Source: a virus (taxonomy: Duplodnaviria > Heunggongvirae > Uroviricota > Caudoviricetes). From it: a DNA stretch of 46,250 nt. The notes beneath the pieces were generated by a model, which made no database searches, was not told where the DNA came from, and saw only the letters and a program-made list of their open reading frames with translations. The stretch lies in IMG/VR virus record IMGVR_UViG_2718218453_000004, one strand, 5' to 3'. Position 1 is the stretch's first letter. Each line of letters begins with the position of its first letter. Position numbers and translations under genes: made by a program. Positions 8,170 through 19,522 of this stretch are shown one piece after another.

Positions 8170-8571
8170 GTGGCAAAAGTTTTTACACAAGAAGAGCGGG
8201 AAAAAATTAAAGGGCAGGTGGTGGAACTCGTGCGCCAGAGCGGTCGTGAGACGTTACGGCAACTGGAAGCTAAAACAGGTGCGACTAGATATCTGATGAG
8301 CGTTCTTGCCAGAGAGCTGGTAGCCAGTGGCGATGTATACAACTCCGGCTACGGGTTATTCCCGTCTGAACAGGCGCGTAAGGACTGGCAAAACGCCCGC
8401 AAAAAACTCTCGAGGGCAAAGGTGAAGAAAACAGCTGTGGTTGATCCGGACGTTATCTGGTCGTTACCTGATGGAGAAATACGTCGCTACGACAGTCGCC
8501 TAAACATAATCTGTCGCGAGTGCCGGATGAGTGAAGTTATGCAGCGCATACTGGCATTTTATCAGGGATAA
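8170..8571 (+). CDS. Hypothetical protein (133 aa)
   Basis: ORF following the replication gene; basic, no motif recognised. Confidence 0.55.
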   Translation: MAKVFTQEEREKIKGQVVELVRQSGRETLRQLEAKTGATRYLMSVLARELVASGDVYNSGYGLFPSEQARKDWQNARKKLSRAKVKKTAVVDPDVIWSLPDGEIRRYDSRLNIICRECRMSEVMQRILAFYQG

Positions 8572-8668
8572 TGTTAGGTATTTTAGACGTTACTAGATTA
8601 AAAAGCATTAGTTCAGGAGTGAATTGACATTCTCATTTTTCATGGCACAGGGTAGATCTGGCGTGGTT

Positions 8669-8692
8669 GTCCGCTTTGTGCCAAAAGCGGAC
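8669..8692. terminator. Hairpin between convergent genes (gtccgcttt-N6-aaagcggac)
   Basis: Perfect 9-bp inverted repeat between the rightward 133-aa gene and the leftward 595-aa gene. No clear U-tract, so terminator function is uncertain. Confidence 0.3.
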
Positions 8693-8789
8693 ATCGAATA
8701 ATTTCAGCAGCACTCAACCTTATTAACCAAATCGCCTCAACTCATATGGACATGCATCCGGAAGTGCCAACTTCGTAAACTTATTCACT

Positions 8790-10577
8790 TTAAGTCTGAG
8801 CCTCACTCTCTTGGCCATAAGTGGCTTGCCAGTATCTCGCCGTAGGGTTCATTAGAATGTGCAATACAAGCCACCATGCAAAAATGCAGGGAGGTTGATT
8901 GTAGTAACCGGCAGGCACATATCCGTGAGCTAGTTGATTTCGTAAATCACCATAGATTTTATCTACCAGTAAGGCCTGAAGATTGCCAATTATGTCTACG
9001 CCGAAAGCTTCAATAATCAGTGGATTATCTAGTAATCCCTTGAGTCCATTTCGCTCTTGCGAACCGTCCCCGTGAAGCTGCGATGGTTCCTCACCTTTAA
9101 TTTTAGCCACATATCTCAGACTATTTTCGAGCTGGGGAATCAACACGTGGCATGCCGTCATAAAATCTCCATTGAAACCGCAAACCATACCCTTGATGAA
9201 AAACTCTTCATGCCCAAACGGGATGAAGGGATGATTGATGAACATATCGCGAAAAAACGCCTCCGAGATTGGATATTTCATTGTGATCTCATCTGTAGCA
9301 GGAATAATTTGCCCAGCTACTGCCAACTCATGGTCGATACGCATTCTCGTCATCATTATGGGCCAAATAACTGCCCCATTTGCATCATCAATCCCCAATC
9401 CTGCGGGTATGCGAGCAAGTGTCATTCCCTCATGATCAATATGTGTTGATCCAAACATCCAAGCTATGCTGTTGGCCTTTTGTTCTATTGCTTGAGCCTT
9501 AAGTCTCTCAATGCTGGTTGGCCGACAGACCAGCATCGCAAGTCTGAAAACCATATCAAACAAATCTCTTCCGACTACCCGACTCTTGGCTTGATGGACA
9601 ATCTCACTAATATCTTGAGGGGGAGACTGAAGGATAGACATCTGGTGACGGGATTCGATTTGGTAATCACGCATTTCTTCATACAGCGCAAGACGTTCTA
9701 TTCGGGTTCCTGGAATATTAGCCAGTGCTTCAATAGCATTCTGCATGCAGGCTGCCGAAATCATACCGCCATCTTGGAATTTTGACTCTTCCAGATGTGT
9801 ATCGGCAAGAAGCCGCCAGAATTCAAACTGTGTATCTCTGTCACAGCACCTATTCGCAATCGGGATTGCGGTTTTACAGGCATCGACGGCAAATGAAAAT
9901 AATTTTTGAGCCAGATAGTTTTTTGTCAGAAACAGGAGTTCCTGGGCAATAAAAGATGGCTCACTCACTTTACAGTCGATATCGAGTTGCAGGAGTCGCA
10001 GCGGATAAGGTGAATCGCCTTGTTCTCTGGTACGTTCATACTCTGCTAGTAGATGTGCCGAAAGCTGATCAAATTCATCCCTGAAATCAGTATGCTTTCG
10101 AAAAAAACAACACAGCCTAAGCGCACGCTCTAGGCGTTCTAAAGCACTAACCCACGTCCCTTGCGATGTCATAATAGCTATACTGGACGCATAATAAGCA
10201 CGGACTGCCAGCAAAGGAAAACGGATTCCACCAATTTTACGAACCCAAAGTGTATCAGCAATACGAGCTTGAAGTTCGGGTAGCTCTATCGTCGGGCAAA
10301 ATTGAGAAAGTACCTCCAGCGACAACCCGTTAATGTCATCCGGAATTGCAGATCTACCTTGGCTGCTTTGAAAGCACGGACCAAATGGTACCTGTGGATT
10401 TTCGGGACGAAAGTGAAAACCGCAAATATGGGTTAGCAGTCTTATCTCCGCTCTTCCATCACCTAGGCTAGAAAGATACTTTGTGATATCAAAGCAGGTA
10501 ACTGGCAGCTTACTCTGGATTAAGGGGGATAAATCAATAGTGTTAAGTTCGTCGAGGCTGATATTAATATCGTCCAT
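8790..10577 (-). CDS. Large accessory protein with C-terminal HEPN-like RNase motif (R-x4-H-x-Y); candidate abortive-infection/defence effector
   Basis: 595-aa ORF on the opposite strand to the surrounding rightward operon. RNQLAHGY near the C-terminus (encoded at 8925..8942) fits the HEPN/HepT-type Rx4-6H motif. Visibly AT-richer than flanking genes (by eye, not computed). Occupies the slot where K-12 Qin has relBE beside hok. Confidence 0.6.
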   Translation of the reverse strand: MDDINISLDELNTIDLSPLIQSKLPVTCFDITKYLSSLGDGRAEIRLLTHICGFHFRPENPQVPFGPCFQSSQGRSAIPDDINGLSLEVLSQFCPTIELPELQARIADTLWVRKIGGIRFPLLAVRAYYASSIAIMTSQGTWVSALERLERALRLCCFFRKHTDFRDEFDQLSAHLLAEYERTREQGDSPYPLRLLQLDIDCKVSEPSFIAQELLFLTKNYLAQKLFSFAVDACKTAIPIANRCCDRDTQFEFWRLLADTHLEESKFQDGGMISAACMQNAIEALANIPGTRIERLALYEEMRDYQIESRHQMSILQSPPQDISEIVHQAKSRVVGRDLFDMVFRLAMLVCRPTSIERLKAQAIEQKANSIAWMFGSTHIDHEGMTLARIPAGLGIDDANGAVIWPIMMTRMRIDHELAVAGQIIPATDEITMKYPISEAFFRDMFINHPFIPFGHEEFFIKGMVCGFNGDFMTACHVLIPQLENSLRYVAKIKGEEPSQLHGDGSQERNGLKGLLDNPLIIEAFGVDIIGNLQALLVDKIYGDLRNQLAHGYVPAGYYNQPPCIFAWWLVLHILMNPTARYWQATYGQESEAQT

Positions 10578-10950
10578 GTCGTCACCTTGATGATTTGTTA
10601 ATGCGGGGGCAACATTAATAAATGTACTTGAGACCGCAATTTGTCGATGGAGCCAACATTTATAACTATGTGCTTCTACCCTCTGAATTTTTACATGTGA
10701 ATTGCTAGCTTGAATAGCTCTATCATTATATACGTGGCACTAAATTATGGCTGTTTTTCGCTCAAAGCGGACTAGAAGGTTAGCTTGTGTCGGACTTTGC
10801 GTATTAAAAGAAGTGCTGGTGGTGACTAGTGGTTGTGCCCCATTTCCACAGAAAAAATCAGAGAAACTATACCCAATAGTTGTATTGAATCACTGACGAG
10901 ACAGCCTCATATTCATCAGGACTGGTCTACGTCCAATACAGGAGGTTGTG

Positions 10951-11040
10951 GTGCTGGTTCTCAAATGTGCGCTGGCTATTACGGCTGTAATGGCGATTTA
11001 TTGTCTTGCTATTGTTCTTATGGATCGCCTTTCTGACTGA
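10951..11040 (+). CDS. Candidate 29-aa hydrophobic peptide (type I toxin-like or leader peptide)
   Basis: AGGAGG at 10940-10945, 5-nt spacer, GTG start. Translation (M)LVLKCALAITAVMAIYCLAIVLMDRLSD is one predicted transmembrane helix with a charged tail. +1 frame relative to the TTG-start 67-aa ORF-track entry. Confidence 0.3.
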   Translation: MLVLKCALAITAVMAIYCLAIVLMDRLSD

Positions 11041-11251
11041 TTTCACATTGGCGAGGTAACGGTAGTTAAGTAGAATGGCTGCGGGTGCTTGAGGCTATCT
11101 GCCTCGGGCATGAACACCAACGGCAGATAGAGAAAAGCCCCAGTTAACATTACGCGTCCTGCAAGACGCTTAACATTAATCTGAGGCCAATTTCATGCTA
11201 GACATATGTAGGTTAGCCTCTTACGTGCCGAAAGGCAAGGAGAAGCAGGCT

Positions 11252-11407
11252 ATGAAGCAGCAAAAGGCGATGTTAATCGCCCTGATCGTCATCTGTTTAA
11301 CCGTCATAGTGACGGCACTGGTAACGAGGAAAGACCTCTGCGAGGTACGAATCCGAACCGGCCAGACGGAGGTCGCTGTCTTCACAGCTTACGAACCTGA
11401 GGAGTAA
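11252..11407 (+). CDS. hokD: Hok/Gef-family type I toxin (51 aa)
   Basis: MKQQKAMLIALIVICLTVIVTALVTRKDLCEVRIRTGQTEVAVFTAYEPEE matches the Hok family and RelF/HokD as recalled. SD AAGGAG upstream. An in-frame upstream ATG (11195) gives the 70-aa ORF-track entry (mok-like). Confidence 0.9.
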   Translation: MKQQKAMLIALIVICLTVIVTALVTRKDLCEVRIRTGQTEVAVFTAYEPEE

Positions 11408-11475
11408 GAAACCCGGCGAGGGAGAAATCCCTCGCCACCTCTGATGTGGCAGGCATCCTCAACGCACCCGCACTT

Positions 11476-11497
11476 AACCCGCTTCGGCGGGTTTTTG
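11476..11497 (+). terminator. Rho-independent terminator downstream of hok
   Basis: aacccgc-ttcg-gcgggtt hairpin followed by a T-run. Confidence 0.7.
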
Positions 11498-13284: not shown

Positions 13285-14037
13285 ATGAACCTTGAAGCCT
13301 TACCAAAATATTACTCCCCAAAATCTCCAAAATTGAGCGATGACGCTCCAGCGACAGGCACCGGTTGTTTAACAATTACGGATGTAATGGCAGCGCAGGG
13401 GATGGTGCAGTCGAAAGCACCACTTGGGTTGGCCTTATTTCTGGCAAAAGTTGGTGTTCAGGACGCTCAGTTTGCGATTGAAGGCCTGCTAAATTACGCG
13501 ATGGCACTGGATAACCCGACATTGAACAAATTGAGTGAAGAAATCCGGTTACAGATTATTCCTTACCTCGTGAATTTTGCCTTTGCTGATTACTCCAGGT
13601 CTGCGGCAAGTAAGGCTCGCTGTGAGCATTGTTCAGGTACGGGATTTTATAATGTATTGCGCGAAGTGGTGAAACACTACAGACGCGGGGAATCTGTAAT
13701 CAAGGAAGAATGGGTGAAGGAACTATGTCAGCATTGCCATGGTAAGGGCGAAGTCAGCACAGCGTGCAGAGGGTGTAAGGGTAAAGGGATTGTTCTGGAT
13801 GAAAAAAGAACCCGGTTTCATGGCGTACCGGTATATAAGATTTGTGGGCGTTGTAATGGAAACCGGTTTAGTCGTTTACCGACCACGCTGGCACGACGTC
13901 ATGTCCAGAAGCTGGTACCAGACCTGACCGATTATCAGTGGTATAAGGGGTATGCGGACGTCATTGGTAAACTGGTAACAAAGTGCTGGCAGGAAGAAGC
14001 ATACGCGGAAGCGCAATTGAGGAAGGTGACGAGATAA
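13285..14037 (+). CDS. quuQ: Late-gene antiterminator Q (250 aa)
   Basis: Cys-rich zinc-binding region (CEHCSGTG...CQHCHGKG...CRGCKGKG...CGRCNG) typical of phage-82/Qin-type Q proteins, followed by a PR'/tR'-like unit. Confidence 0.85.
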
Positions 14038-14068
14038 ATGATTTTTGCTGAAGATGGCGACATGATGT

Positions 14069-14097
14069 TTGCATTTTTCAAAAAACATGGATAAGAT
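14069..14097 (+). promoter_or_regulatory. Late promoter PR'-like (TTGCAT-17-TAAGAT) with presumed qut site
   Basis: Near-consensus sigma70 hexamers with 17-bp spacing immediately downstream of Q. Confidence 0.6.
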
Positions 14098-14144
14098 TTT
14101 CTCAACGATGGGCTTTGTGTATCCGACGTTTAGAAAAAAGTAGA

Positions 14145-14168
14145 AAACCCGCTTATAAGCGGGTTTTT
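14145..14168 (+). terminator. tR'-like rho-independent terminator
   Basis: Perfect palindrome cccgcttataagcggg followed by TTTTT, about 60 nt downstream of the putative PR' start. Confidence 0.8.
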
Positions 14169-14712
14169 GTGCTTTAAATGGGGCAATAGAGATATTGAAT
14201 CTCATCCCGGGATAAACATTGGCAGTTGAAGGTCCACGCGAACCATTTATCCAGCAAAATTCCACGCGTAATCCTGTGGTAATTTCTTCTGCATCTCGAA
14301 GATTGAGAGCTGAAACGTGAAGCTGGGCATCGATACGCCATCGGATGGGAATATAAGACCTTTGCTGCTTTTGTAGTCAAAGTTTTTGACAATTCCTGTC
14401 ATTTTAGGGGACAGAAAAACTCCTTAATACTGATAACCTGGTGCACCATACACACGTTCCTGGAGAAAACTACTTTTTTGATAGGATTGAAGGTGGCTGG
14501 ATGTCTAAAATAAACATTGCTTCATATGTTCAACTATGAGTTAATGACTGCGTCGGTTTGAAGAACAGACGATATACGAAGTAGTTTACTAAAGCAGTTC
14601 TCATTTCAGGTGTTATTCACTTATTCCTTCTTTGAGTCTCTCCAATTAAGTACGAAGTCGTTTCTGTTATGCAAACCATTTATGCCGAAAGGCTCAAGTT
14701 AAGGAATGTAGA

Positions 14713-14928
14713 ATGTCAAATAAAATGACTGGTTTAGTAAAATGGTTTAACGCTGATAAAGGTTTCGGCTTTATTTCTCCTGTTGATGGTAGTAAAGATG
14801 TGTTTGTGCATTTTTCTGCGATTCAGAATGATAATTATCGAACCTTATTTGAAGGTCAAAAGGTTACCTTCTCTATAGAGAGTGGTGCTAAAGGTCCTGC
14901 AGCAGCAAATGTCATCATTACTGATTAA
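14713..14928 (+). CDS. cspB: Cold-shock protein CspB-like (71 aa)
   Basis: [23 protein letters not shown]...VFVHFSAI carries the cold-shock domain RNP1/RNP2 motifs. Confidence 0.9.
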
Positions 14929-15210
14929 AATTCATCGCTCGTCTGTATACGATAACGAAGAAGGCTGATGCCTGAGTAGAGATACGGACAGAGTAGTGAA
15001 TATTGGATCTCTTTAATAAAAAGTAAGGAGGTCCAATACATGAAACAATGGCTAGCATATTTGGCAAAATCTTAATCAGGAAAAGTATGCTAACCATTGT
15101 GGTGAAGTGCAGGTTTGCTGCATGAATAGTTTCACAGCAGAAGCTAACTGCTGGCATCGCAAAACAAAGTGCGTAAGTGGATGACTCCCACAAAAAGCAC
15201 CACAATCTCA

Positions 15211-15232
15211 AACCCGCTCAGGCGGGTTTTTT
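15211..15232 (+). terminator. Rho-independent terminator
   Basis: aacccgc-tcag-gcgggtt hairpin followed by TTTTTATT. Confidence 0.7.
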
Positions 15233-15291
15233 ATTATCTGCTTTAAATATATTATTAAAATATAAAAAATACTTGTTACTAATAAAATCAA

Positions 15292-15462
15292 TCAGGCTAC
15301 AGCTTTAAGATTTGTCTGGAATACTTTGTTGCAATGAGGGCAGATCAAAAGGGCACCTTTTTGTACTCTTGAAAAACTGTGTTCTGACTCTTGGGTGCAG
15401 TTTGGGCAGGAACATTTAACGAGATAATTACGGCGTGATTTTGAGTCTTTACGTTCTGACAT
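15292..15462 (-). CDS. Small zinc-ribbon protein (about 56 aa)
   Basis: MSERKDSKSRRNYLVKCSCPNCTQESEHSFSRVQKGALLICPHCNK has two CxxC pairs. Confidence 0.5.
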   Translation of the reverse strand: MSERKDSKSRRNYLVKCSCPNCTQESEHSFSRVQKGALLICPHCNKVFQTNLKAVA

Positions 15463-15682
15463 AGGCTTTTCCTGTATAAATGGCCGTATACAGTACACTA
15501 AATATGAAAACATTTCTCGTATTATTATTTTATATATGACTTTCTTTCAAAATAATTACTCACATTTTTAATGTGTATGTTTCTTTAGCGCCGTTGAGAA
15601 CAACGTGTGCTGTCAAAACTACCCCGTAGACTCCGATCTTTTTCAAACATATTGCACCATCCGTGTACATCGGGGTGAGGAT

Positions 15683-15898
15683 ATGAAATCAATGGATAAG
15701 TTAACAACAGGTGTTGCCTATGGCACATCGGCGGGTAATGCTGGTTTCTGGGCATTACAGTTACTCGATAAAGTAACTCCGTCACAGTGGGCTGCAATCG
15801 GTGTGCTGGGTAGCCTGGTTTTTGGCCTGCTGACGTATCTGACAAATCTTTATTTCAAGATTAAAGAAGACAGGCGTAAGGCTGCGAGAGGAGAGTAA
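15683..15898 (+). CDS. essQ: Class II holin / pinholin (S21-like, 71 aa) with dual start
   Basis: [26 protein letters not shown]...[13 protein letters not shown] has two transmembrane segments and Met1/Met4 starts, as in phage 21 S. Confidence 0.85.
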
Positions 15899-15902
15899 TC
15901 CA

Positions 15903-16210
15903 ATGACTCAAGACTATGAACTGGTTGTGAAAGGAGTCCGTAATTTTGAGAATAAAGTTACGGTAACTGTAGCCTTACAGGACAAGGAACGCTTTGACGG
16001 TGAAATTTTTGACCTGGATGTCGCCATGGACCGTGTTGAAGGAGCTGCGCTGGAGTTTTATGAGGCAGCAGCCAGAAGGAGCGTCCGGCAAGTCTTCCTG
16101 GAAGTAGCAGAAAAATTGTCAGAAAAAGTTGAGTCTTATCTGCAGCATCAGTACTCCTTTAAGATTGAAAATCCTGCCAATAAGCACGAGCGTCCTCATC
16201 ATAAATATAT

Positions 16211-16214
<4 letters not shown>
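15903..16214 (+). CDS. ydfR: YdfR-like protein (103 aa)
   Basis: 103-aa ORF between the holin and the endolysin, as ydfR in Qin. Confidence 0.7.
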
Positions 16215-17238
<1,024 letters not shown>

Positions 17239-17600
17239 GGTAATATTAAATCGGAACATTTACATCGCGGAATGTAAAATTTAAATAAAAAGGACTCTTC
17301 CATGAGCCAAAATTCCTGAAATCTTAAGGGTAAGATAAAAGGTCTTAATCAGAATGACACGTTTTATTAATAAATAAAGCTATTCTTTCATTGCTGTGTT
17401 TTTCTTTACAAAAGTAATCCTTGCTATGGGTGGTTAATCATGCGTTAATGGTGTTCTGGTTTGTTACAAATTTATCTGAAGCAGTCATTGTTATAATTTT
17501 ATTATTTGTACCTCTTGAGATTTCCTTGTTGGTTTTTCTCTCTGATATTTTTTTTCGGACCATTCTGCCCAAGGGCTAATTTCTTCAAAAGGTAATAATT

Positions 17601-17813
17601 ATGTCTAACAAAATGACTGGTTTAGTGAAATGGTTTAACCCTGAAAAAGGTTTTGGTTTCATCACGCCGAAAGATGGCAGCAAAGATGTGTTTGTCCATT
17701 TCTCAGCAATTCAGAGCAACGATTTCAAAACATTAACTGAGAATCAGGAAGTTGAATTTGGTATTGAGAACGGACCTAAAGGTCCTGCCGCTGTTCATGT
17801 AGTGGCGCTTTGA
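17601..17813 (+). CDS. cspI: Cold-shock protein CspI-like (70 aa)
   Basis: [45 protein letters not shown]... matches CspI as recalled. Confidence 0.9.
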
Positions 17814-18084
17814 GGTAGACAATATTACAAACCATATTCACTTTAGATGCCCGTGTTGTCATGGTTCCCAGTATAGAACATCATCTTTTGATGTTTCTGA
17901 CATGAATCCTTTCGGGGCAAAATGTATCTTTTGTAAATCAATGATGATTACATTTGATAATATTTCACAATACTTAAATGCCAGCCGTCTGTCGTTGGAT
18001 TTAAAAAAGTGAAAATGAAGGCTCCTTCGGGAGCTTTTTTGCTTGGTATCTATTCGATGGATACTCACATACTACGGTAACATC

Positions 18085-18315
18085 ATGAAAAAAATCATAG
18101 TTTTTTTTAACTCTGAACCAGCAGTGGTAGTGCCAGCGATGACTGGAGTTAACACCATCATGCGTGAATATCCAAATGGCGAAAAAACACACCTTACTGT
18201 AATGGCCGCAGGGTTTCCATCTCTGACCGGAGATCATAAAGTCATTTATGTAGCCGCGGATCGACATGTTACTTCAGAAGAAATTCTGGAAGCAGCAATA
18301 AGGCTCTTGAGTTGA
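18085..18315 (+). CDS. Hypothetical small protein (76 aa)
   Basis: ATG at 18085 inside the ORF-track entry (MKKIIVFFNSEPAVV...). Confidence 0.4.
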   Translation: MKKIIVFFNSEPAVVVPAMTGVNTIMREYPNGEKTHLTVMAAGFPSLTGDHKVIYVAADRHVTSEEILEAAIRLLS

Positions 18316-18483
18316 TTTGATGCTATTGTATTGATAATTCAGGAAAATTCTCTTTGTCTGTTTGTGTAAAATTTAGACTATCGTATGTTGATTATTGCGA
18401 TGTTTCATCTTATCTTTTACACGTTTGCACCATATAATCGACTTACTGTGTAACTGGAAAGTCATAACAGACTAAAAGAGGAA

Positions 18484-18660
18484 ATGATGAATATTGAAAA
18501 CTTAAAAACAAAAGCAGAAGCAGATATTTCTGAATATATAACAAAAAAAATTATTGAACTTAAGAAAAAGACCGGGAAAGAAGTTACCAGTATTCAGTTT
18601 ACCGCACGGGAAAAAATGACGGGTCTTGAAAGCTATGATGTCAAGATTAATTTAATCTGA
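18484..18660 (+). CDS. gnsB: GnsA/GnsB-family small protein (58 aa)
   Basis: Hand-translated MMNIENLKTKAEADISEYITKKIIELKKKTGKEVTSIQFTAREKMTGLESYDVKINLI. Below the ORF-track size cut-off. Resembles GnsB as recalled. Confidence 0.75.
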   Translation: MMNIENLKTKAEADISEYITKKIIELKKKTGKEVTSIQFTAREKMTGLESYDVKINLI

Positions 18661-18811
18661 TGTATTCAATAATAAAATTTATCCATAAACCTCGTTTTTA
18701 CGGGGTTTTGTTATATTTGAATGGTTCCGAATATCTAAATCACAATTGTTGATGGTTTTTATTAAACCAATGCAGTCCGGCTCAGGAGTGAGAGAAGCCG
18801 GACGTTATGGT

Positions 18812-19222
18812 TTAGCGTGGTAAGATCTGTGTAGTTTTCTGGATGCTTTCAGTAAATAGTAATGAGTTATCAAAGGCATAGTAATATCTTTGGTGTTCCT
18901 GGATATTTGTAACCCATCGGAAAACTCCTGCTTTAGCAAGATTTTCCCTGTATTGTTGAAATGTGATTTCTTTTGATTTCAACTTATTATAGGAGGTCTC
19001 TATAAGATGTTTGTTTCTGGAGAATTTAACATTTACAACCTTTTTGAGTCCTTTTACTAACACTATGTTGTCGTTTTCTAACACAATGTGAATATTATCT
19101 GTGGCTAAATAGTAAATATAAAGTGAGACATTGTGACGTTTTAGCTCAGAATAAAATAATTCACAGTTTAAATCTTTACGCACTTGATCGAATATTTCTT
19201 TAAAAATGGCAGCCTGAGCCAT
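18812..19222 (-). CDS. ydfO: YdfO-like protein (DUF1398-type)
   Basis: About 136 aa from the internal Met, in the Qin-equivalent position. Confidence 0.6.
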
Positions 19223-19522
19223 TGGTAAACCTTCCATGTGATACGATGGCGCGTAGTTAGCATTATCGTGTTTATTGTTTCAATCTGGTCTGACCTCTTT
19301 GTGTTTTGTTGATGATTTATGTCAAATATTAAGCCTGTTTTTGATGAATAGTGTTGATTGCGTAACAAAATTGAGCCTTGCTGGCATCCAGGAGGGATAT
19401 GCAACCGACAGATGTATGTAAGGTCGATGTACTCAAACTTTCATACTTTTCCTCTTTTATGCAGTAAGATTTGAAGTAATATTTTAACCGCTAGATGACG
19501 AGCAAACGCATGGAGCGACAAA

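Follow-up and report, generated by a model that had tools for sequence, protein, structure and literature searches.

The DNA analyzed here (the window) is the 46,250-nucleotide IMG/VR virus record IMGVR_UViG_2718218453_000004 (Caudoviricetes), an essentially complete lambdoid prophage of the Qin family that occupies the Qin site of K-12 and extends from an integrase gene (21-1301) to ydfJ' at ~45.7 kb. The gene under study is an intact open reading frame (ORF) at 8790..10577 of the minus strand, starts with ATG, and encodes a 595-aa protein identical to WP_021514655.1, the accession assigned to the gene in Escherichia coli strain 190. It is convergent with a DUF977 gene (8170-8571, plus strand) and antisense to the early-right operon, the rightward series cro-like, ydaT, O-like, DUF977 ... 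hokD, rem, ydfU, and ydfT/Q, so that the ORF coordinates and strand bear out an earlier prediction, made from the window's letters and its ORFs (hereafter the original prediction), that a large single gene is transcribed here against a rightward operon. As described below, the protein joins an N-terminal DUF7380 domain and a TPR-like solenoid to a C-terminal HEPN domain of the DUF4209 family and is a full-length member of the predicted phage-defense family PDC-S39.

Two Pfam families were detected in the protein: DUF7380 (PF24098) at residues 4-166 (E = 3.4e-34) and DUF4209 (PF13910) at residues 484-573 (33.9 bits versus a gathering cutoff of 22.3, E = 3.2e-8). Precomputed PF13910 annotation is also present on most of the full-length homologs. 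A search of NCBIfam gave no match, the PHROGs matches were families 5183 and 31613 (both of unknown function), and no NTPase family occurred among the Pfam, NCBIfam, or PADLOC matches. The full-length AlphaFold2 model, built with an alignment of homologs, is all-helical with a mean predicted local distance difference test score (pLDDT) of 90.7 and a predicted template-modeling score (pTM) of 0.75. Residues 395-595 were also modeled alone so that TPR matches would not swamp the result (pLDDT 91, pTM 0.86), and the best structural matches of this HEPN core were HepT chains, such as 7ae2_A and 5yep_B. A profile search against the sequences of the Protein Data Bank (PDB) gave a weak match of residues 146-287 to the TPRs of kinesin light chain. 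Pfam and structure prediction thus agree on the HEPN fold that had been proposed for the C-terminus, and we regard the presence of this all-alpha helical bundle as nearly certain. The location of the domain was correctly anticipated; its extent was not, as it spans ~195 residues (aa ~400-594) rather than 150. The suggestion that the N-terminal region acts as a sensor is plausible given the DUF7380 domain and TPR-like solenoid found there. A sensor of the STAND/Avs NLR-like type was considered and rejected, as no STAND/P-loop NTPase domain was detected and the model consists of an all-helical solenoid plus HEPN.

To assess conservation, 69 homologs were collected and the 37 full-length sequences, with identities down to 23%, were aligned. 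Seven residues and no others are invariant in all 37 (Gly384, Gln482, Glu484, Arg488, Arg546, His551, and Gly552), with Asn485 and Ser486 each retained in 36. These positions define two active site-like elements of the family, LIPQxENSLR (aa 479-488) and LRNxxAHG (aa 545-552). The residue after the Arg of the latter (position 547) is Asn in 28 sequences, His in eight, and Asp in one, a pattern like that of active HEPN proteins that we count in favor of the HEPN assignment. The sequence RNQLAHGY on which the original prediction was based comprises aa 546-553 and is encoded at 8942..8919; its numbering of Arg546 and His551 was right, but the interval it gave (8925..8942) covers RNQLAH only. A bare R-x4-H is expected at the level of chance, with shuffles of the protein averaging 0.97 per sequence and a second copy present at aa 411; the motif is meaningful because it is invariant in 37/37 homologs and is sited in the HEPN fold. 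The agreement of the DUF4209 match, the invariant Arg546 and His551, and the fold supports the proposed fit to the HEPN RNase signature, with RNase activity predicted from the conserved residues.

The more specific claim of a HepT-type RNase did not survive. In its favor, RNQLAHGY fits R-x4-H-x-Y, an extended motif that arises in only 2.4% of shuffles, and the R-x4-H is common to the window protein and to the HepT-MNT structures that are its best matches. HepT proteins, however, are toxins of ~130-140 aa in which a conserved Tyr is AMPylated by MNT, whereas the window protein has ~400 extra N-terminal residues and the corresponding Tyr553 is kept in just 18 of the 37 homologs, being otherwise Leu, Phe, Lys, or Ala. 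In addition, no MNT/nucleotidyltransferase gene adjoins the window gene, none is conserved at 75 related loci, and Pfam assigns DUF4209 rather than a HepT family. On the basis of the unconserved Tyr and the missing MNT partner, membership in the HEPN-MNT (type VII) toxin-antitoxin class is effectively excluded, and we consider it very improbable.

Table 1. Features of the 595-aa gene and its surroundings in the window.
Feature	Position	Strand	Basis or comment
CDS, 595 aa, WP_021514655.1: DUF7380, TPR-like solenoid, helical/beta-hairpin linker, HEPN (DUF4209); PDC-S39 member	8790..10577	-	ORF, Pfam, PADLOC, model
DUF7380 domain, aa 4-166; near-invariant R105, D108, W111, A124, Y128, R151, A152	10080..10568	-	Pfam PF24098, conservation
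TPR-like alpha-solenoid, ~aa 100-312, paired helices; overlaps C-terminal part of DUF7380	9642..10280	-	proposed sensor/interaction module
HEPN domain, ~aa 400-594; DUF4209 core aa 484-573	8796..9380	-	
Helix motif LIPQLENSLR, aa 479-488; probable second half of active site	9114..9143	-	alignment, counts
Predicted catalytic motif R546-N-Q-L-A-H551-G552 (R-x4-H)	8922..8942	-	alignment, counts
-10 hexamer TATAAT, candidate own promoter	10725..10730	-	found by eye in the sequence
Cargo cassette, ~2.06 kb: gene plus 95 bp 3' and ~175 bp 5'; specific to DUF4209-carrying prophages	8695..10752		junction comparison
Perfect 10-bp inverted repeat TGTCCGCTTT/AAAGCGGACA, 6-nt loop; conserved backbone at left junction	8668..8693		between convergent genes
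DUF977 gene, last of replication module; conserved left neighbor of slot	8170..8571	+	
sok antisense RNA/hok regulatory region; conserved right neighbor	11083..11257	+	Rfam RF01794, 112.7 bits versus gathering 59
hokD, following sok	11252..11407	+	annotation

The family is large and widely scattered. The motif LIPQLENSLR alone retrieved 175 relatives from species-representative genomes of Gamma- and Alphaproteobacteria, Cyanobacteria, Chloroflexota, Verrucomicrobiota, and Armatimonadota, and a profile search of 1.84 billion representatives (50% identity) yielded 8,063 relatives at E ≤ 1e-3, of which the best 150 are all ~600 aa and were matched over their full length. This size and patchy distribution across phyla were counted in support of a defense role. 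Within E. coli, the 3.5-kb region containing the gene was found in 145 of 5,426 complete genomes, including ATCC 25922 and ECOR29, and the exact 595-aa protein occurs on at least 1000 contigs. Disrupted copies also exist: in strain FHI_NMBU_11 (NZ_CP045712.1) an IS3-family insertion divides the gene, whose two parts are annotated individually as a DUF7380 protein and a DUF4209 protein, and N-terminal-only fragments (P0012, P0013) are common in assemblies. Both observations suggest that loss of function is tolerated.

These data also bear on the alternative that the ORF serves a routine phage function (structure, replication, or lysis) or is a pseudogene in decay whose motif arose by chance. 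Such an origin might be suspected from its site inside a prophage, from the chance-level frequency of a bare R-x4-H, and from its match to two PHROGs families. Against it, the ORF is intact and abundant as described above, it belongs to a family of thousands with a conserved full-length architecture, and it lies antisense to the operon in a variable slot. No match to the viral structure library BFVD was obtained at E ≤ 1e-3, and relatives are encoded in just 2 of the 50,697 phage records searched (vB_EcoM-569R9, in the accessory hotspot of P2-like phages, and P2-EC46, AM157366.1, presumably at the same site). From the BFVD result and the rarity of relatives among phage records we conclude, in agreement with the PHROGs matches, that the protein is not homologous to phage structural or replication proteins; such homology is what the original prediction had named as fatal to its proposal. 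The conservation and fold data refute an ordinary phage gene or a pseudogene, which we rate as the least probable of the explanations considered.

No partner gene was identified among the neighbors of the family. When 391 neighbor proteins from 75 loci were sorted into 353 clusters, none was conserved in the gammaproteobacterial clade. The exception to this rule is cyanobacterial: in 11 loci (L042, L051, L052, L054, L060, L063, L067, L070, L076, L082, and L088) an ORF for a PIN-domain protein lies directly downstream (e.g., L082:4909-5337), overlapping the DUF4209 gene by 4 nt in 10 of the 11 and separated from it by a 5-nt gap in L076. The DUF4209 protein of all 11 loci carries an extra C-terminal tail of ~45 aa, DPWVKFAGMFKDDPLFDEFVEDM..RRELD; the protein of the window lacks this tail and has no PIN gene beside it. 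As judged from sequence, the cyanobacterial form looks like a HEPN protein fused to an antitoxin-like tail that would gate a second RNase toxin (PIN, VapC-like). A PADLOC scan of 142 flanking proteins detected type I restriction-modification (R-M) S and M subunits, MADS, SoFic, and PDC-S04. The window copy itself lies in a prophage, not in an R-M operon.

Much of this agrees with what has been published. DUF4209 corresponds to the C6orf70/ERMARD family, which was placed in the HEPN superfamily, predicted to be catalytically active, and noted to be fused to TPRs and found in R-M-related operons (Anantharaman et al. 2013, PMC3710099). The same traits recur here in the TPR-like solenoid of the protein and in the type I R-M subunits among the flanking proteins. 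With C6orf70/ERMARD the window protein has in common a PF13910 match above the cutoff, an intact R-x4-H, and the TPR fusion; the eukaryotic members are described as anchored in the endoplasmic reticulum (ER) membrane by a transmembrane segment and have a proposed role in RNA degradation at the ER, whereas the bacterial protein has a helical model and is encoded on a prophage. A comparison with PADLOC, one of the checks suggested in the original prediction, gave a full-length match to the candidate PDC-S39 by two hidden Markov models: PDLC05012 (E = 2.9e-102, aa 43-581 versus positions 54-602 of a 615-position profile) and PDLC05011 (E = 2e-101). The window gene is thus a full member, standing alone and with relatives near type I R-M genes. 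The PDCs were derived by guilt-by-embedding in BREX, DISARM, and type I R-M loci (Payne et al., bioRxiv 10.1101/2024.01.29.577857). In the papers found to mention PDC-S39, it is cited as a prediction only. DefensePredictor lists WP_021514655.1 as a 'Predicted novel defense gene' with a mean log-odds of 4.34, and a 602-aa DUF4209 paralog scores 7.38; neither accession nor the term 'DUF4209' appears in its table of cloned units (PMC13092281). Literature searches on DUF7380 and on ERMARD plus HEPN found nothing, and a search for DUF4209 found the term in the main text of one open paper only. The core of the finding is therefore already known, the HEPN assignment from 2013 and the status of defense candidate from PADLOC and DefensePredictor.

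The window prophage is far more complete than the cryptic Qin of K-12. It includes genes for integrase, excisionase, exonuclease, dicB/ydfD, an immunity region, replication, Q, lysis, terminase, head, tail, and tail fibre, as well as pinQ and ydfK, and ends with ydfJ'. Its identity to the prophage of E. coli strain 190 is at least 99.98% if an IS1 insertion of ~766 bp in the latter, at ~18616 of the window, is disregarded; one 1-bp indel is also present. To delimit the cassette, the slots of eight loci, a small sample rather than a census, were compared. On the left, sequence shared with prophages that carry other cargo extends from the DUF977 gene as far as 8694. On the right, the shared sequence starts again at 10753-10760 in three loci of the sample and at 11018, 11056-11063, or, for K-12, 11238 in others. 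The interval so defined contains the 595-aa gene alone. The inverted repeat bordering the left junction (Table 1) could be a terminator hairpin, though it is without a U-tract.

The slot between the DUF977 gene and hok/sok holds different cargo in different prophages. K-12 carries relBE, ydfV, and flxA at the equivalent position, as the original prediction stated for the interval upstream of hokD; the gene order is hokD-relE-relB-ydfV-flxA-ydfW-ydfX-dicC. ATCC 25922 has the PDC-S39 (DUF4209) gene, as in the window. EC21Z-078 possesses a 449-aa gene on the opposite strand (L004:375-1724, minus strand) that matches PADLOC PD-T7-1 with E = 7e-157; this homolog adjoins a short site-specific integrase gene and another hypothetical gene. 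The S88 slot (L007:2116-4095) encodes WP_014639476.1 and a protein 99% identical to WP_000354965.1, a pair that RefSeq still labels as hypothetical and that equals DS-33 (HEPN plus GNAT) of DefensePredictor, where it is marked defensive in the cloning table (PMC13092281). QueH is found in Ec55, ead/Ea22-type genes in A1.S1.18, and an IS1-mediated deletion in MB53; a Paa adhesin is also among the cargos. The mapped junctions and the different contents of equivalent slots establish that cargo has been exchanged. The companion claim of a defense hotspot, in the sense of the P2 gpA-gpQ and P4 psu-int loci, where defense systems make up a substantial share of many alternative cargos between conserved flanks, may hold in part: among the eight sampled loci relBE, DS-33, the PD-T7-1 homolog, and PDC-S39 fit it, but Paa, QueH, and ead/Ea22 do not. 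Two slot occupants are useful for comparison with the 595-aa protein. DS-33 also includes a HEPN protein, but its two genes are encoded on the operon strand and have no sequence relationship to the 595-aa gene; relBE encodes a ribosome-dependent RelE toxin with a protein antitoxin.

Expression signals and base composition of the gene were inspected as well. A Shine-Dalgarno sequence (AAGGTGA, 10582-10588) is positioned 4 nt 5' of the ATG. A perfect -10 hexamer is found 147 nt 5' of the ATG, inside the cassette, and is preceded by a poor -35 sequence (CAGCCA, 3/6). A consensus scan for promoters and terminators (9/12) returned no minus-strand promoter upstream of the gene, with site counts equal to those of shuffled sequences. 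The gene had been described as AT-richer than its neighbors, and its G+C content (GC) of 0.449 (0.403 at third codon positions) is lower than that of DUF977 (0.502), O-like (0.477), and hokD (0.519). That of rem is lower still (0.393), however, and the gene lies at the 24th percentile of equal-sized windows in a sequence of 49.1% GC overall that dips to ~0.35, so the bias is weak. Compositional anomaly as a sign of recent foreign origin was rejected on this basis. A stretch at ~14000-19500 is AT-rich (GC 0.32-0.41), far below the 595-aa gene, and contains the cspF'/cspB/cspI cold-shock paralogs, ynfQ/R/N, the gnsB region, and the lysis cassette.

Additional features were noted to the right of the cassette. 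Just upstream of sok, a GTG start after AGGAGG opens a strongly hydrophobic 30-aa ORF (MVLVLKCALAITAVMAIYCLAIVLMDRLSD, 10948-11040, plus strand) that is unannotated in a genome of 100% identity and has a terminator-like hairpin within it (10975-10994). It could encode a small membrane peptide or a type-I-toxin-like product; as a partner of the 595-aa gene it was rejected, since it sits in backbone common to prophages with other cargo. Adjoining hokD downstream, at 11416-11497 (plus strand), is a sub-threshold Rfam match to the Hfq-binding small RNA IsrK (25.7 bits versus gathering 50, E = 0.0095); an overlapping weak match to rsmX is probably due to chance.

HEPN enzymes form a composite active site from two HEPN domains and cleave RNA without a need for metal. 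With this in mind, we somewhat favor the interpretation that the 595-aa gene is a solo abortive-infection gene, encoding an autoinhibited sensor-HEPN RNase, on a self-contained prophage 'moron' cassette. The protein would be made in the lysogen independently of lytic transcription, with its HEPN activity held off by its own N-terminal region; autoinhibition is suggested by the lack of an antitoxin and the abundance of intact copies. A phage-derived cue would be sensed by the DUF7380/TPR module, two HEPN domains would then pair to create the composite, metal-independent RNase site, and this site would cut cellular and/or phage RNA (tRNA, rRNA, or mRNA). The resulting stop in translation or arrest of growth would abort the infection or exclude a competing phage, such that the lysogen population and the resident prophage would be protected. 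The association with defense (PDC-S39, DefensePredictor, and the flanking R-M genes), the slot cargos, and the relatives in P2 hotspots are suggestive of such a role. The fold is secure; the defense function is a prediction.

Several known systems provide models for this scheme. HEC-08 (a DUF3644 HEPN with Zn ribbons) and DS-11 (CBS plus HEPN) likewise combine a HEPN effector and a non-catalytic accessory or sensor domain in one polypeptide, and these single-protein systems lose defense when the catalytic residues of their R-x4-6-H motif are mutated, so that the window protein might work in a similar way. The HEPN domain of HEC-08 is N-terminal and that of DS-11 is ligand-gated by CBS; both belong to other subfamilies, with the fold alone in common. 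A conceptual likeness may also be drawn to RNase L and Ire1 (KEN-type HEPN), in which sensor-driven dimerization switches on a HEPN RNase. Those enzymes use ankyrin repeats or a kinase in place of DUF7380/TPR, they lack homology to the window protein outside the HEPN fold, and dimerization of the latter is a supposition.

The closest approach to an experimental result comes from the P2 gpA-gpQ interval, which was defined as a defense hotspot and for which DUF4209 systems #13 (193) and #55 (76) are listed in the supplement (Rousset et al. 2022, PMC9122126). In the same study, one of these systems, pFR103 ('Putative HEPN', E. coli S88), was cloned together with its native promoter and exposed to eight coliphages in K-12 (PMC9122126). 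Its protein is 99% identical to the product of a DUF4209 gene lying between gpA and gpQ in the P2-like phage vB_EcoM-569R9 (L089:4041-5972), a distant PDC-S39 paralog; P2-EC46 encodes another distant relative. pFR103 resembles the window gene in having DUF7380 plus DUF4209, in its PDC-S39 membership (E = 8.5e-85), and in being a single gene in an accessory hotspot of a prophage. It differs in its location, which is gpA-gpQ of P2 rather than the lambdoid DUF977-hokD slot, and in sequence, with 24% identity over aa 271-591 of the window protein and the catalytic motifs retained.

Various points weigh against a defense role for the 595-aa gene. The single phage challenge of a family member, that of pFR103, yielded no reported phenotype; it is listed in the table of 'additional tested systems' and not among the validated systems (PMC9122126). 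The PDCs are, in the words of their authors, '145 untested phage defence candidates' (Payne et al., bioRxiv 10.1101/2024.01.29.577857), and the gene's log-odds of 4.34 falls short of the 7.7-9.7 recorded for those cloned DefensePredictor examples that were inspected. The gene's own promoter is a candidate recognized by its -10 box, and we infer the RNase activity, dimerization, autoinhibition, trigger, and lysogen expression of the protein. Finally, the non-defense cargo in the slot makes the location suggestive rather than decisive.

Some of these points can also be accommodated by a HEPN RNase or RNA-binding moron with a role other than defense, either a one-polypeptide addiction module that penalizes prophage loss or a factor that regulates RNA of the host or prophage to the benefit of the lysogen. 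Addiction-type modules are indeed present at the slot (relBE in K-12 and the adjoining hokD/sok) along with non-defense cargo, the sole family member challenged with phages is absent from the validated systems, the eukaryotic C6orf70/ERMARD proteins are predicted to function in housekeeping RNA degradation rather than immunity (PMC3710099), and the cyanobacterial fusion to an antitoxin-like tail beside a PIN toxin is an arrangement of toxin-antitoxin type. Addiction by one protein, however, needs two parts of differing stability, and no evidence points to such a pair; members of the family lie within R-M, BREX, and DISARM loci and in defense neighborhoods across phyla, and some sit in P2 defense hotspots. 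Moreover, toxin-antitoxin-like and abortive-infection functions can coexist. A non-defense role is thus a serious competitor that we nevertheless hold to be unlikely.

Alternatively, the 595-aa gene may serve in defense or competition against a narrow target that the usual coliphage panels would miss (particular lambdoid or P2-like competitors, satellites, or plasmids), or may need a host or prophage co-factor encoded elsewhere. The prophage and P2-hotspot locations fit a narrow target, as does the failure of pFR103 to be validated with an eight-phage panel in K-12, and systems from such hotspots can act specifically on related phages (PMC9122126). No conserved co-factor is encoded nearby, though, nor does direct evidence point to any one target, and a narrow target would refine the abortive-infection scheme rather than supply a separate mechanism. 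As an explanation in its own right, we judge it quite improbable.

On balance, the abortive-infection interpretation of the DUF7380-DUF4209 protein remains the one we prefer, and the result mainly re-derives published computational predictions, leaving a candidate that is sound but unsurprising. What this work adds are the junctions, the slot cargos, a confident fold model, and the cyanobacterial PIN-linked variant. The cassette is now defined to the level of its junctions, and one and the same slot of Qin is shown to accommodate DS-33, a PD-T7-1 homolog, and relBE. Because its junctions are mapped and these three are among the exchanged cassettes, the DUF977-hok/sok interval of Qin-type prophages is a good place to mine for candidates. 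A stronger outcome is conceivable, although we lean slightly against it: a working, trigger-specific, single-protein sensor-HEPN abortive-infection system that gives the DUF7380-DUF4209 family its first defined function, in an interval that ranks as a hotspot comparable to those of P2/P4. If the gene defends, the untested database candidate PDC-S39 would become a characterized system, and a HEPN family whose human member, ERMARD, is of unclear function would become accessible to biochemistry. Were the proposed mechanism true, the cyanobacterial PIN-linked versions would represent a variant in which one sensor also gates a second RNase, and a first function would be at hand for a HEPN family that includes human ERMARD/C6orf70 and spans Proteobacteria to Cyanobacteria.

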